Origin: Eledone cirrhosa
Taxonomy: Eukaryota
Length of the DNA: 64,000 bases
Reading direction: 5' to 3'
NCBI GenBank assembly: GCA_964016885.1
Contig: OZ024747.1
Location: 24,552,001 to 24,616,000, forward strand
Below the pieces are notes generated by a model. That model was given only the letters and a program-made list of their open reading frames with translations. It was not told the DNA's origin and ran no database searches. Position numbers and translations under genes: made by a program. Shown here one piece after another: positions 6,559 to 60,088 of the stretch; the stretch's first letter is position 1, and each line of letters opens with the position of its first letter.

Positions 6559-6653
6559 GACGTATCCGACGACCGAGTGATGTCAGAGTCAGGTTTGATC
6601 ACCATATCGATTGTGCCTCGAGCTGGTCGCCCGAGAAACAATTGTAATATGTC
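6559..6653 (+). ncRNA. Hammerhead-like motif with extended stem II
   Basis: gacgtat CCGACGA [62-nt imperfect hairpin] GAAA caattg TA atatgtc; 7-bp stem I; core has U4C. Confidence 0.6.
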
Positions 6654-7324
6654 CAATAAATTCCTTTCGTCGCAACACTGATTCTCTTTTTTCTGTGATA
6701 TCATACTCTGCTCTACGATGGCATTGAGTGCTCATGCAGCCTACCGCATACGGACGCTTTAAGATAGATAACACCATCTTTGGTGCTGGTGTTATGATGG
6801 AATGCACTAGATGCACCCTGTTGAGTGCAGGAATGTTATGTTAGTAAGATGTGACACCTTGATCTGTCTGAGAGGTCAGTAGCTCTGATTAAATACTGTG
6901 ACAAACCATCTAATTCCATCAAGGAAAACAGATGTTAATGATGATGATGATGATTATATACATATGTGTGTGTGTGTGTGTGTGTCATGTGCATATGTGA
7001 GCATAATTATGTAATGTTTGTATGGGTGTGTATATACATAAGTCAATTACAAACAGTTAAATATCGGGGGGGGGGGGGGCTAGCTGAACAATAACAACAA
7101 TATTTGCATGTAAGTGTGTATATGTGTGTGTGTATATATGTGTGTGTGTGTATATATATATATATATATATGTGTGTGTGTGTGTTTGTGAGGTGTGTGT
7201 ATATATATATATATCAGTATGTAAGTATGTGATGTCACATGTCCTAAAGTGGTGTGGAGGGGAGAGTTGTTTTATCTCTAATGAGCAATTCTTTACTTCC
7301 ACCACTCTTTCTCTCTCTTTTCCT

Positions 7325-9455
7325 GTAGTAGTAGTAGTAGTAGTAGTAGTAGCACCACAACCACCACTACTACTGCCACTACCTCTACTGCTACCACCAC
7401 TACTACTGTCACTACCTCTACTGTCACCACCACTACTACTGCCACCACCACCACTACTACTGCCACTACCTCTACTGTCACCACCACTACTACTGCCACC
7501 ACCACCACTACTACTGCCACTACCTCTACTGTCACCACCACTACTACTGCCACCACCACTACTACTGCCACTACCTCTACTGTCACCACCACTACTACTG
7601 CCACCACCACTACTACTGCCACTACCTCTACTGTCACCACCACTACTACTGCCACTACCTCTACTGTCACCACCACTACTACTGCCACTACCACTACTAC
7701 TGCCACCACCACTACTACTGCCACCACCACTACTACTGCCACTACCTCTACTGTCACCACCACTACTACTGCCACCACCACTACTACTGCCACTACCTCT
7801 ACTGTCACCACCACTACTACTGCCACTACCACTACTACTGTCACCACCACTACTACTGCCACTACCACTACTACTGCCACCACCACTACTACTGCCACTA
7901 CCACTACTACTGCCACCACCACCACTACTACTGCCACTACCTCTACTGTCACCACCACTACTACTGCCACCACCACCACTACTGCCACTACCACTACTAC
8001 TGTCACCACCACTACTACTGCCACTACCACTACTACTGCCACCACCACTACTACTGCCACTACCACTACTACTGCCACCACCACTACTACTGCCACTACC
8101 ACTACTACTGCCACCACCACTACTACTGCCACTACCTCTACTGTCACCACCACTACTACTGCCACTACCACTACTACTGCCACCACCACTACTACTGCCA
8201 CTACCTCTACTGTCACCACCACTACTACTGCCACCACCACTACTACTGCCACCACCACCACTACTACTGCCACTACCTCTACTGTCACCACCACTACTAC
8301 TGCCACCACCACCACTACTGCCACTACCACTACTACTGTCACCACCACTACTACTGCCACTACCACTACTACTGCCACCACCACTACTACTGCCACTACC
8401 ACTACTACTGCCACCACCACTACTACTGCCACTGCCACTACTACTGCCACCACCACTACTACTGCCACTACCTCTACTGTCACCACCACTACTACTGCCA
8501 CTACCTCTACTGTCACCACCACTACTACTGCCACTACCTCTACTGCCACCACCACTACTACTGCCACTACCACTACTACTGCCACCACCACTACTACTGC
8601 CACTACCTCTACTGCCACCACCACTACTACTGCCACTACCACTACTACTGCCACCACCACTACTACTGCCACTACCTCTACTGTCACCACCACTACTACT
8701 GCCACCACCACTACTACTGCCACTACCTCTACTGCCACCACCACTACTACTGCCACTACCACTACTACTGCCACCACCACTACTACTGCCACTACCACTA
8801 CTACTGCCACCACCACTACTACTGCCACTACCTCTACTGTCACCACCACTACTACTGCCACCACCACTACTACTGCCACCACCACCACTACTACTGCCAC
8901 TACCTCTACTGTCACCACCACTACTACTGCCACCACCACCACTACTGCCACTACCACTACTACTGTCACCACCACTACTACTGCCACTACCACTACTACT
9001 GCCACCACCACTACTACTGCCACTACCACTACTACTGCCACCACCACTACTACTGCCACTGCCACTACTACTGCCACCACCACTACTACTGCCACTACCT
9101 CTACTGTCACCACCACTACTACTGCCACTACCTCTACTGTCACCACCACTACTACTGCCACTACCTCTACTGCCACCACCACTACTACTGCCACTACCAC
9201 TACTACTGCCACCACCACTACTACTGCCACTACCTCTACTGTCACCACCACTACTACTGCCACTACCTCTACTGCCACCACCACTACTACTGCCACTACC
9301 ACTACTACTGCCACCACCACTACTACTGCCACCACCACTACTACTGCCACTACCACTACTACTGCCACTACCACTACTACTGCCACCACCACTACTACTG
9401 CCACCACCACTACTACTGCCACCACCACTACTACTGCCACTACCACTACTACTAA
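7325..9455. repeat. 2.1-kb compound trinucleotide (CCA/CTA/CTG) minisatellite with 15-21-bp units; reads as Gly/Ser-rich on minus strand
   Basis: Units such as ccaccactactactgcca; all length variants are multiples of 3. Confidence 0.9.
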
Positions 9456-9835
9456 CTACATCAACTGAATAACAAACTAAAGTGCAGTCTCTGGTCAGTT
9501 TTGTTTTGTCTTTTTTAAGAGTTCCTCCTCCTCCTCCCATTAAGTCATTGTTGATTTGGAGTGGTGACCCCCTCCCCTCCCACTACCACCACTTCCTCTT
9601 TGTCTCTATGTCTACAGTTCAGTTCTAAAAGTCTTCTCAGTCATCCATCTGACCTATATACACACACACACATACACACACACACATACACACATACACA
9701 TATTTATATATATATATATCGTTCAATATATAAATCATGAATACACACACACATATATATATATATATATATCATCATCATCACCATCATCGTTTTACGT
9801 CCGTTCTTCCACGCTAGCATGGGTTAGACATACAT

Positions 9836-10440
9836 TGGATTGGCAGTATTGGTAGAGGGTCGGACGCCATGCTTTGACGTATAGAGTTACGGCCCTTGCC
9901 ATTCCGAGTTCAAATCCTGCCAAGGTTAACTTTGCCTTTCATCCTTACGGGGTCGATAAAATAAAGTACCAGTAATGCACTGGGGTAATTGCTGGCCTTG
10001 TGTCTAACGTAGAAACAATTATTATTATTAGATTTATTATTATTATTAAAATAAAGAAATCATTATTATTATTATTATTGGTGGGAGAGTCGAACACCAT
10101 GCTTTGAAGCATAGAGTTACGTCCCTTTATGACCTGAGTTCAAATCCCGCCGAGGTTAACTTTGCCTTTCATCCTTACGGGGCCGATAAAATAAAGTACC
10201 AGTAATGAACTGGGTAATTGCTGGCCTCGTGCCAAAAATAGAAACAATTATTATTATTATTATTAGATAAGAGTTACGGCCCTTGACGTTCTGAGTTCAA
10301 ATCCCGCTGAGGTTAACTTTGCCTTTCATCCTTACGGGGTCGATAAAATGAAGTACCAGTAATACACTGGGGTCGATTTAATCGACTTTCTCCTCCCCGA
10401 AAATTGCTGGCCTTGTGCCTATATAAGAAACCATTATTAT
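9836..10440 (+). mobile_element. Cluster of three head-to-tail family A SINEs separated by (ATT)n
   Basis: Copies at about 9836-10030, 10079-10265 and 10271-10440. Confidence 0.85.
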
Positions 10441-10556
10441 ATAGCATTCAATATATAAATCATGAACACACACACACACTCATATATATGTTTATGGGTT
10501 TCAATCAGGGGTAACCACAGTAAGGTACTCAATACAAAGCAGAGTATAAATATTTA

Positions 10557-57635: not shown

Positions 57636-57972
57636 AGTAAATACTGTTAACTGACATAGTCACTGACATAGTGCTACTGTGACTACATGTAGATAAGCCT
57701 TCACCAACAATACTTTGTTTACCATTGTCTTCCAGTTTCCAGCATCTGGAAATAATGAACAAGTGCTGATGAACTGTAATGACAGTGGAATACATTCATT
57801 GACTGCTCTTACCCCAATACTGAAGTAGCTGTGATGTGGTCACAGCTTGAAATACCCACACAAACATAATATGTATGTTTATTATACATCAACATATTCT
57901 ATATGTGCTTATATACAACTTCATTCTGTATATATAGTGTCTACTATTACATTCACAGCTCCTTCTTTGCCA

Positions 57973-58345
57973 ATAATAGGGATACATTTATAATAGGGAT
58001 ACATTTATAATAAGGCTACATCTATAATAGGGGTACATTTATAGTAGGGTACATTTATAATGGGGGTACATTTATAATGGGGTACATTTTATAATAAGGC
58101 TACATTTATAATAGGGGTACATTTATAATAGGGGTACATTTTATAATAAGGCTACATTTATAATAGGGGTACATTTATAATGGGGTACATTTATAAGGCT
58201 ACATCTATAATAGGGGTACATTTATAATAGGGTACATTTATAGTAGGGTACATTTATAATGGGGTACATTTATAATGGAGTAGATTTATAATGGAGTAGA
58301 TTTATAATGGAGTAGATTTATAATGGGGGTACATTTTATAATAGA
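57973..58345. repeat. ~18-bp minisatellite
   Basis: taataggggtacattta. Confidence 0.9.
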
Positions 58346-59090
58346 GTTTATGAGGTGTATACCCTGAGATTGTATACCTTGGTCAAACACACATATATAC
58401 AGATGTACACAAACACCATATTGACACACACTATATAGCCAACACACACACAACATCACACCACACACAAACCACACACGTCACAACCCACACACATCAC
58501 AACCCACAGCCACACATCACAACCCACACACATCACAACCCACAGCCACACATCACAACCCACACACATCACAACCCCCCCACACACACATCACAACCCC
58601 CACACACGCATCACAACCCCCACCACAACCCATACACACTCACCAACACACATCACAACCCCCCCCCACACACACACATCACACCACACTCCGCATACAC
58701 TCATATATAACAGAAACCCCTACACCATACACACACATACACATATACCACACAATATATATATATATATATATATATTATAGATAACAGATCTGTCTGG
58801 AATCACTGAATTGTAAGGAACAACCATCTTTCTTTCTATCTGTCTCGCTTGCTACCTCTCTATGTATCTATCCATATATATAAGTATTGAGTACTTTGGT
58901 GCGTATGGTCCATCTGGTTCCTTACCACATTTCCTTCGTTTATATATTTATATATAAACTGTAGAGTGCTTCTTATCCAATATCTGCATTGCTTTATTGT
59001 ACTACAATAAAACTCACCTCCTACACATATAAACAATTGGATAAGAAGCACTCTACAGTTTGTAGGACTGGAGTATATATAATATATAAG

Positions 59091-59490
59091 ATCAAAAGAT
59101 GGTTAAAAGAGTTCCATGTATATGTTGATTTAAAACTGCACTATTCACAAGTATTTTTTAACCTTCATATCATGTCTCCCTATTTTATCTGATGAAAACA
59201 CAAATATTATTGCAGCTGTAGAAATGAGATGATAGGGACTGAGGTCCATATCATTCCACTGCAAAGTGGTCGTGGAGGTGCCACGGCAAAAAAGCACCCA
59301 GCACTCACTGTAAATGAGGTTGGTGTTAGGAAGGGCATCCAGCTGTAGAAATCAAGCCAGAATCAGTTCCCGTCCCACCCTTGCAAGCAGGGAAAAGCGG
59401 ACGTAAAATGAAATGATGATGATGATGATGATATTTGTTTTTGAAATGCGCATAATAAAATACATGGAACTCTTTTAACCATCTTTTGAT
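59091..59490. mobile_element. MITE with perfect 31-bp TIRs containing a truncated family B SINE (59212-59432)
   Basis: atcaaaagatggttaaaagagttccatgtat / atacatggaactcttttaaccatcttttgat. Confidence 0.75.
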
Positions 59491-59982
59491 ATACATACAT
59501 ATATATACATACATACATACATATATACATATATACATATATATACATACATATATATACATACATATATATACATACATACATATATACATACATACAT
59601 ATATACATACATATATATATATACATACATATATATACATACATACATATATACATATATATACATACATATATATACATACATATATACATACATATAT
59701 ATATACATACATATATATACATACATACATATATACATATATACATATATATACATACATATATATACATACATATATATACATACATACATATATACAT
59801 ATATATATATATACATATATATACATACATACATATATACATATATACATATATATACATACATATATATACATACATTATATATATTATATATATATAT
59901 ATATATATATATATATATATATATATATATATATATATATACGGGATAACAAATTATTGTTATAGGTAGTCCACTACCGCAA

Positions 59983-60088
59983 GCTCTGATGAATTGACTG
60001 GTTATAACTATGTATTGGTGATCGATTGACGCAGAAACAGGCGGGTAGCGATCTCTAGACCTACCAGTTCAGAGAAACAATTGTCAGC
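59983..60088 (+). ncRNA. Hammerhead-like motif with extended stem II
   Basis: gct CTGATGA [81-nt hairpin] GAAA caattg TC agc; GUC triplet. Confidence 0.6.

Follow-up and report, generated by a model that had tools for sequence, protein, structure and literature searches.

The 64,000-nt stretch of the Eledone cirrhosa genome analysed here (assembly GCA_964016885.1, contig OZ024747.1, forward-strand positions 24,552,001 to 24,616,000; hereafter the window, with positions counted from its first letter) contains three type I hammerhead motifs in which the two halves of the catalytic core are separated by a stem II region of 60-81 nt. We refer to these motifs, and to the families they belong to, as A (6559, plus strand), B (59983, plus strand) and C (33095, minus strand). 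A preliminary description of the window had presented them as members of a long-stem-II subclass with dissimilar sequences, leaving the host element unnamed. Judging from its encoded protein, the host is a Penelope-like element (PLE), a retroelement, with families A and B showing the protein motifs of the Hydra clade. With moderate confidence, we regard the motifs as type I hammerheads that reside in short retrocopied PLE ends and are predicted to cut as dimers, the long stem II probably serving as a paired spacer that joins the core halves. The window copies themselves are decaying relics.

All three motifs were confirmed where the preliminary description had placed them, with every part it had assigned. 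Hammerhead A (6559..6653, plus strand) consists of a stem I in which seven of seven positions pair (6559-6565/6647-6653), the core CCGACGA at 6566-6572 (a U4C variant), a stem II region of 62 nt (6573..6634) forming a bulged rod whose base has a C-A mismatch, GAAA at 6635-6638, the palindrome CAATTG at 6639-6644 and then TA, with the cut predicted after 6646. Hammerhead B (59983..60088, plus strand) has a stem I of three contiguous pairs (59983-59985/60086-60088), the core CTGATGA at 59986-59992, GAAA at 60074-60077, again the palindrome CAATTG (60078-60083) and then TC, the predicted cut following 60085; its stem II region of 81 nt (59993..60073) comprises a basal helix with an A-A mismatch at the base, internal loops and distal helices. 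Hammerhead C lies on the minus strand (33095..33185), with the core CTGATGA at 33179-33173, a stem II region of 60 nt at 33172-33113, GAAA at 33112-33109, the decayed palindrome CACGCC at 33108-33103 and TC, and a predicted cut after 33101. A fourth long-arm hammerhead, absent from the preliminary description, is located at 678..759 on the plus strand (CTGATGA, 49 nt, GAAA-CTGCAG-TA; descriptor match at +685) and has one relative, at locus L050. Two further intact hammerheads, at 5869 (plus) and 4574 (minus), possess stem II regions of 26 nt and palindromic helices III (CCTTTGG and TATATA, respectively), bringing the window total to at least six.

The type I core (C3 U4 G5 A6 N7 G8 A9, G12 A13 A14 A15.1, U16.1 H17) is complete in B and C and, apart from U4C, a natural variant, also in A; across the families it is invariant save for positions 4, 7 and 17. 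The 10.1-11.1 pair is nonstandard in A (C-A) and B (A-A) and G-C in C, and the U-U found there in some relatives is a known natural variant. The U4C core recurs in families A, C, B2, F11 and in a family with a 20-nt arm, and as it creates a CpG, some of the copies with the "canonical" CTGA may have arisen by decay from CCGA masters. Helix III remains palindromic despite changing its sequence from family to family (CAATTG, CATATG, CGCGCG, CGATCG), and A and B do share CAAUUG, as originally reported. The self-duplex of the palindrome ACAAUUGU is predicted at -6.4 kcal/mol in both A and B, and that of the broken palindrome of the window copy of C at -1.5; the commonest helix III in family C is CGCGCG (9 of 15 copies). 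The inserts were said to fold back on themselves, and each indeed folds alone as a single bulged rod, although only modestly beyond shuffled sequence (z-scores of -1.2 for A, -1.0 for B and -2.3 for C). Their alleged dissimilarity stands for B, whose insert aligns to neither of the others, but not for A and C, whose inserts have 38 of 62 aligned columns in common, a value reached by none of 1000 shuffles. Since C is homologous to A, the three motifs represent two lineages (A/C and B) rather than three.

Searched with a strict descriptor, which was shaped after the motifs had been seen and required a spacer of 40-120 nt and a 6-nt helix III insert with C as its first letter, the window gave four matches (A, B, C and the one at +685). 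Local dinucleotide shuffles averaged 0.05 matches over 100 runs, and four was reached in none. The independent check is a sample of 800 kb (80 evenly spaced 10-kb stretches) searched with a relaxed descriptor and compared with 20 shuffles. It yielded 65 hammerhead matches: 32 with a spacer of 8-24 nt (15 of them from one tandem array) vs 0.15 in shuffles, 19 with 25-39 nt vs 0.2, three with 40-59 nt vs 0.45, five with 60-89 nt vs 0.45 and six with 90-140 nt vs 0.65. The preliminary description had staked its claim on an excess over shuffled sequence, which is thus seen both in the window and, for spacers of at least 40 nt, in the sample (14 matches vs 1.55 expected). One of these 14 (locus L241, 99 nt) was rejected as a misparse of a short motif, so that 13 of the 65 matches, belonging to several lineages, have a stem II region of 46-116 nt, within a continuum beginning at 11 nt; arms of 11-31 nt are commoner (46 of 65, including the 15 from one array). 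When 306 loci were considered together with the window, 199 matches with a spacer of at least 38 nt were found, and these include at least nine groups, each with two or more copies and not linked to one another by blastn, with arms of 44-116 nt. What stands of the proposed subclass is therefore a set of type I hammerheads with a long, conserved stem II; its discreteness does not, given that the long arm forms a continuum (11 to 116 nt) and that the long arms cannot be aligned between lineages. A search of the same 800 kb with a model of lineage A/C produced nine matches at E<=0.01 beyond the two window copies, two of the nine being training rows and two being weak.

That length-limited searches would miss these motifs was borne out. 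Local Rfam scans of the three loci listed no hammerhead family at E<=10, and the whole-window Rfam scan gave, among the 150 listed of 259 matches, microsatellite noise and one tRNA-like match. The descriptor of Cervera and de la Pena (2014), as re-implemented by us, had no match in the window and two in the 800 kb sample; it also excludes A, B and C through helix III length and the U4C variant. Stem II regions longer than 45 nt occur in about a fifth to a quarter of the intact-core matches (13/65, or 13/51 with the array counted once), and a very rough extrapolation gives 45,000-50,000 long-arm motifs in the 3.0 Gb genome.

The pairing of the long arm was assessed by covariation, as the preliminary description had suggested, using ten sequences from about six families for lineage A/C and nine sequences for lineage B; these are related sequences from one genome, with structures partly drawn from them, and relatedness alone can beat shuffles. 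In lineage A/C, stem I and the long stem II were recovered unaided in the consensus fold, 93.0% of 300 cells are paired (26-37% with slid partners), 10 of 30 pairs changed on both sides, and the score was reached by none of 500 shuffles. The stem II region of this lineage contributes 20 pairs, 94% paired over the ten sequences, of which four changed on both sides, all in the basal part. In lineage B, 97.7% of 214 cells are paired (slid controls 26-44%), with two-sided changes in 8 of 24 pairs; 17 of the pairs lie in the stem II region, with six changed on both sides over the nine sequences, five of them distal. Two-sided changes thus affect stems I, II and III in A/C and stems I and II in B. 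Pairing is kept while the sequence diverges, and arm length is held at 60-63 nt (A/C) or 79-82 nt (B). A tandem A-G motif can be seen by eye in both lineages, at different positions. In homologous genomic copies, the two halves of the core and the stems that close them are conserved, so the claim survives the refuting condition that the preliminary description had set. Within families, the core decays at a rate like that of its flanks (2.4% vs 1.5% in A, 1.0% vs 1.1% in B and 3.8% vs 5.4% in C), which argues for selection on master elements and not on inserted copies; departures from the family's commonest letters number five in A, one in B and ten in C, two of the latter in helix III.

The genomic context connects the hammerheads with PLEs. 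The window copy of family A is a solo, 5'-truncated pseudo-long terminal repeat (pLTR) end at approximately 6531..6763 (plus), beginning after a (TG)n/(TA)n tract; that of family C is a solo copy at approximately 33060..33200 (minus), beginning after (TA)n; and that of subfamily B1 is a solo pLTR end at approximately 59978..60146 (plus), within a (TA)n/(TACA)n tract. An inverted piece of the B 3' tail (59945..59975, plus) is joined to the 5' end of the last copy; in tailed B copies, query positions 1-31 match a stretch downstream of the hammerhead, on the opposite strand, and this is a typical Penelope-like inversion. All three families are abundant: the best 40 of 2571 first-look candidates include 53 matches for family A, most of them 93-97% identical, the best 40 of 2767 include 42 matches for family C (86-90% identical), and the best 40 of 2181 include 59 matches for B1 (up to 99% identical). 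A typical copy measures 140-350 bp and has (TA)n flanks, often an inverted piece at its 5' end and optionally a tail, all of which belong to PLE anatomy as outlined in the accessible text of Craig et al. (2021, PMC8557442).

Longer copies reveal the coding part. In B1, the reverse transcriptase (RT) thumb, linker and GIY-YIG endonuclease are encoded 830-850 nt upstream, and five long copies of family A have a Hydra-type GIY-YIG endonuclease 1.9-2.1 kb upstream. A protein search gave 151 matches, and all 12 loci fetched for long open frames contain open reading frames (ORFs) of 744-872 aa belonging to a sister subfamily, B2, whose motif is 82% alike to the window motif B. Eight of these 12 loci have hammerheads directly repeated at a distance of about 3.5 kb, and the repeat copies at one of them (L139) are 98% identical over 941 bp, defining a B2 unit of ~3.5 kb with a pLTR of ~940 bp and an ORF starting ~280 nt downstream of the cut site. 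The hammerhead is present in both pLTRs of the full B2 element; in family A, the downstream pLTR only was seen. The 808-aa ORF of L139, inspected by eye, is a single frame with an RT plus a C-terminal GIY-YIG domain and with RWK and DKT motifs, and a CxCX5C linker, CxxC and CxH around the conserved E and N, and no CCHH, are found in the B2 (L139) and A (L164) translations. These features agree with the definition of the Hydra clade in section 11 of PMC8557442, and a PLE protein of this genome resembles Hydra-1_Obim in the Hydra alignment. By these motifs, families A and B are PLEs of Hydra type; for family C, the ORF of which was not reached, a Hydra-type protein is presumed from its homology to A. 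Pfam and PDB searches left the 808-aa ORF unrecognised, and the 64-kb window itself contains no PLE ORF. Many near-identical intact ORFs of this kind (L139-L148) suggest recent or current activity. Homologous proteins number 199, one named from Argonauta hians, and two metagenome scans found no relatives. An endonuclease tree of 15 rows, including a wrongly assigned row from a neighbouring element, did not separate a single from a repeated origin of the long-arm lineages.

To locate copy ends, copies were selected only on the sequence downstream of the cut site, positions being given relative to C3. In family A, 28 of 29 5' ends lie no further upstream than -36, with 11 of the 29 between -36 and -28, the same region at which many inverted pieces stop; in B1, 8 of 29 fall at -25 to -4 and seven reach further. 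Rough counts of first-look candidates accord with this, queries upstream of the motif giving 124 vs 2767 for the motif itself in family C and 278 vs 2571 in family A. The 3' ends are found at two sites, +160 and +329 in B1 and about +172 and +218 in A, with loose ends into (AT)n seen at two sites. No universal initiator or downstream promoter motif was found when looked for across the families; an initiator-like TCATT occurs in B1, B2 and C and is missing in A and B4. A step in contig depth near the hammerhead (four runs from one study) was set aside because the sister subfamily confounds it.

These observations can be combined into the following scenario. The full element is a pLTR-ORF-pLTR unit of ~3.5 kb with, as seen in B2, one hammerhead per pLTR. 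Its RNA, to judge from the clustered 5' ends, may start ~13-35 nt upstream of the core, making the hammerhead the first structure of the transcript; a start upstream of stem I would agree with the internal promoter reported for Penelope in the accessible part of PMC2377424. By analogy with known PLE hammerheads, two motifs would share a helix III formed by the 8-nt palindrome ACAAUUGU, and the dimer would be cut after GUA or GUC, probably slowly and aided by the element's protein. After cutting, the long arm would lie wholly within the 5' fragment. Within a lineage the arm keeps its pairing and near-constant length while its sequence diverges, and the selection responsible would operate in active masters, chiefly favouring self-folding of the arm, by which the core stays free. 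Since relatives lack the long arm and nothing in it is shared between lineages, a paired spacer is favoured; the prevalence of 11-31 nt arms, together with the unalignable long ones, makes the extension seemingly optional. Because the copies include the entire motif and terminate at one of two fixed positions downstream of the cut, the RT would start internally on uncut RNA and run to its 5' end, leaving solo copies of 140-350 bp in (TA)n, and the window copies would be such relics, decaying neutrally. Internal RT starts, an uncut template and protein-assisted cleavage have all been demonstrated for PAc, a Poseidon element of Anolis, in the accessible text of PMC11167929.

Several points weigh against this interpretation. 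In none of the window copies is the hammerhead the lowest-energy monomer fold, lying 2.8-5.7 kcal/mol above it. U4C, present in most A, C and B2 copies, and the 10.1-11.1 mismatch in A and B are expected to lower activity, as the accessible text of PMC3088659 reports for U4C in vitro. The alignments comprise only ten and nine related sequences from one genome, with partly self-derived structures. In A/C, the distal helices show no two-sided change, being nearly invariant and hence uninformative for covariation, so that their pairing is predicted rather than proven. The arms contain invariant islands, which in A/C make up the distal half and in B are GTATT and TAGAC; together with the fixed lengths, these suggest more than simple pairing. 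Finally, no clear cluster of 5' ends occurs at the cut site, and the ends that do cluster could mark RT stopping at a structure instead of a transcription start.

The same islands bear on a close rival, which we consider possible but less likely, namely that the extension is a lineage-specific module of 45-116 nt to which the RT-endonuclease of the element itself binds, so as to gate cleavage at the transcript's 5' end or mark the RNA for copying, or that it also acts at the DNA level as an internal promoter just behind the start site. Invariant letters and conserved purine-rich internal loops in families only 60-80% alike, the lengths fixed at 60-63 or 79-82 nt and the placement of the arm within the first 130 nt of the inferred transcript would all suit such a role, for which the internal promoter of Penelope (PMC2377424) and a PLE hammerhead that cleaves only with its protein (PMC11167929) offer precedents, as far as the accessible text of both goes. 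Neither a motif nor a length is common to the lineages, however, and the published Hydra elements (26 rows, at most ~26 nt, in the accessible supplement of PMC8557442) do without a long arm. In the one PLE tested, according to the accessible text, the hypothesised protein-binding stretch falls within the ORF's first 172 nt, in the region of the internal RT start, and the initiator-like TCATT of B1, B2 and C is missing in A and B4. Such a module, if real, would mean natural protein-switched hammerheads that number tens of thousands of copies and go unseen by standard ribozyme searches.

It is unlikely that the motif no longer cleaves usefully and is kept as a hammerhead-shaped RNA scaffold, the long arm having grown under relaxed catalysis. 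U4C, the 10.1-11.1 mismatches and the short stem I of C and B could be read in this way, as could the derivation of genomic copies from uncut RNA and the report, in the accessible text of PMC11167929, that hammerhead mutants leave insertion in vitro unaffected in another PLE. Yet C3, G5, A6, G8, A9, GAAA and U16.1 are invariant in all ten A/C sequences (a point weakened by their having been picked for an intact core), and position 7 varies freely while position 17 is never G, which is the pattern expected for catalysis.

Less likely by far is an arm serving as a double-stranded RNA (dsRNA) substrate for ADAR or Dicer and thereby regulating the element. Rods of 20-45 bp and the strong folding of some families (z-scores of -4 to -6.6) might attract such enzymes, but the rods in the window are interrupted by loops every few pairs, and 249 copies of seven families show no excess of A>G on the RNA strand of the long arm (36/4489 vs 50/4882 for T>C, p=0.28), a result that covers only RNA copied back into DNA. 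The dsRNA role that the preliminary description had entertained for the extra helix hence left no editing trace, and neither is the helix needed as the dimerisation element it also proposed, dimerisation being explained by the helix III palindrome, a known feature. A chance placement of two short core-like words on either side of an unrelated hairpin, to which the weak single-copy folding z-scores might point, is refuted by the shuffle tests, conservation in thousands of candidate copies, covariation in all three stems and the position in both pLTRs, and we give it practically no credence.

Other long-arm families occur elsewhere in the genome. The one with the longest arms (L283-L294, L188, L204 and L209; 101-116 nt) forms an AU-rich rod of ~35-45 bp (z-score -4.9), with CGATCG as helix III and an endonuclease ~1 kb upstream; going by its predicted fold, it is the best candidate, if any, for dsRNA processing. 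Another (L295:1362-1854, L296-L306) is an element of ~493 bp in (TA)n with a branched stem II region of 97 nt and no ORF seen, of which 29 of 40 listed copies are identical to the query over 176 bp and some pairs lie 1 kb apart; judging from these copies, it is non-coding, non-autonomous and very young. Its apparent link to an endonuclease 74% identical to that of a family with an 11-nt arm was rejected, the endonuclease belonging to a neighbouring element. The tandem array of the 800 kb sample (L238, G000:C28:110000001-110010000) has a period of ~422 bp, most of its units bearing a short-arm hammerhead with CTAG as helix III (15 matches in 10 kb), and looks like a satellite of non-LTR (long terminal repeat) retrozymes. 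The window further includes a 195-aa frame at approximately 33560-34150 (plus; L061) with a zinc knuckle and a restriction-like endonuclease pattern, which we take to be probably the 3' end of a non-LTR retrotransposon, a tRNA-like match just over the Rfam cut-off at 25577-25640 (plus; 29.9 bits), probably the head of a short interspersed nuclear element, and large minisatellites at 7360-9453 (period 18 bp), 35638-39553 (~54 bp) and 49414-52060 (45 bp).

How do the Eledone hammerheads compare with those described before? The closest counterparts are the Hydra-clade PLE hammerheads in the accessible text and File S2 of PMC8557442, which include Hydra-1_oBim of Octopus bimaculoides. They too represent a type I motif near the pLTR end with a palindromic helix III of 6-8 nt and a frequent 10.1-11.1 mismatch, in elements with (TA)n targets and the same protein motifs. 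In all 26 Hydra rows, however, stem II extends to ~26 nt at most, as opposed to 60-81 nt here and up to 116 nt genome-wide; the listed cores all have U4, whereas U4C occurs here, and the elements are generally under 3 kb, compared with units of ~3.5 kb. The same supplements contain two motifs of Selaginella PLE-X1 with ~50 nt between the core halves, marked as deviating, and eight Naiad "HHR_half_core" entries (Octopus and Euprymna among them) with 35-50 nt, not accepted as hammerheads; these come from different clades, have shorter spacers than those found here and are listed there without structural analysis.

The minimal PLE hammerheads, as far as the accessible text of Cervera and de la Pena (2014, PMC4209133) describes them, likewise reside in pLTRs, mostly as solo truncated copies, and combine a palindromic helix III with dimer cleavage and low activity; the palindrome and the predicted dimer logic are alike here. 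Their descriptor calls for a stem II of 3-7 bp, a loop of 3-10 nt, a 2-nt helix III and U4, unlike our motifs, and the 56 representatives have, by our reading of Fig. S3 of that source, at most ~24 nt between the core halves, vs 60-81 nt. PAc resembles the elements studied here in its AT-rich targets and in two internal RT start sites that define the tail, and it is by analogy with PAc that we assume an uncut RNA template and a protein-assisted hammerhead; its ORF starts at stem II, with the cut site 26 nt on and hence a short arm, whereas the ORF here begins ~280 nt past the cut (PMC11167929, accessible text). Non-LTR retrozymes (PMC7229834; bioRxiv 10.64898/2026.07.22.740005; accessible parts of both) are also of type I with a palindromic helix III and PLE ancestry, yet they are non-coding tandem units of ~300 bp with circular RNA, while A, B and C are dispersed solo ends. 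Families A and B are moreover tied to coding elements, and the copies depart from a retrozyme arrangement except for one pair of family C located 1.5 kb apart (L076/L077). Dimeric PLE hammerheads are delimited, in the published descriptions accessible to us, by a stem II of 3-8 bp with a short loop, which the 60-81 nt found here far exceed. According to a review (PMC6765202), minimal PLE hammerheads are also the subject of Lunse et al. (2017).

Stem II here is thus two to three times longer than in the published hammerhead lists, as far as these are accessible, and the "long helix II" of viral hammerheads refers, in the text available, to 6-8 bp. Full-text literature searches, with most subscription papers outside their reach, found no description of stem II regions of 60-116 nt in PLE hammerheads. 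The link to retroelements, the palindromic helix III and dimer cleavage are already known; the long, covarying and abundant arm appears little described, with marginal precedent only. Published genomic hammerhead counts rest, so far as their accessible methods indicate, on descriptors capping the stem II region near 26 nt, and PLE families or Naiad "half cores" scored as hammerhead-free may merit re-examination for long arms. The clustered 5' ends may also explain why solo hammerhead fragments are so numerous in animal genomes, and the young families, with their intact ORFs and a removable arm, provide a direct test of what PLE hammerheads do.

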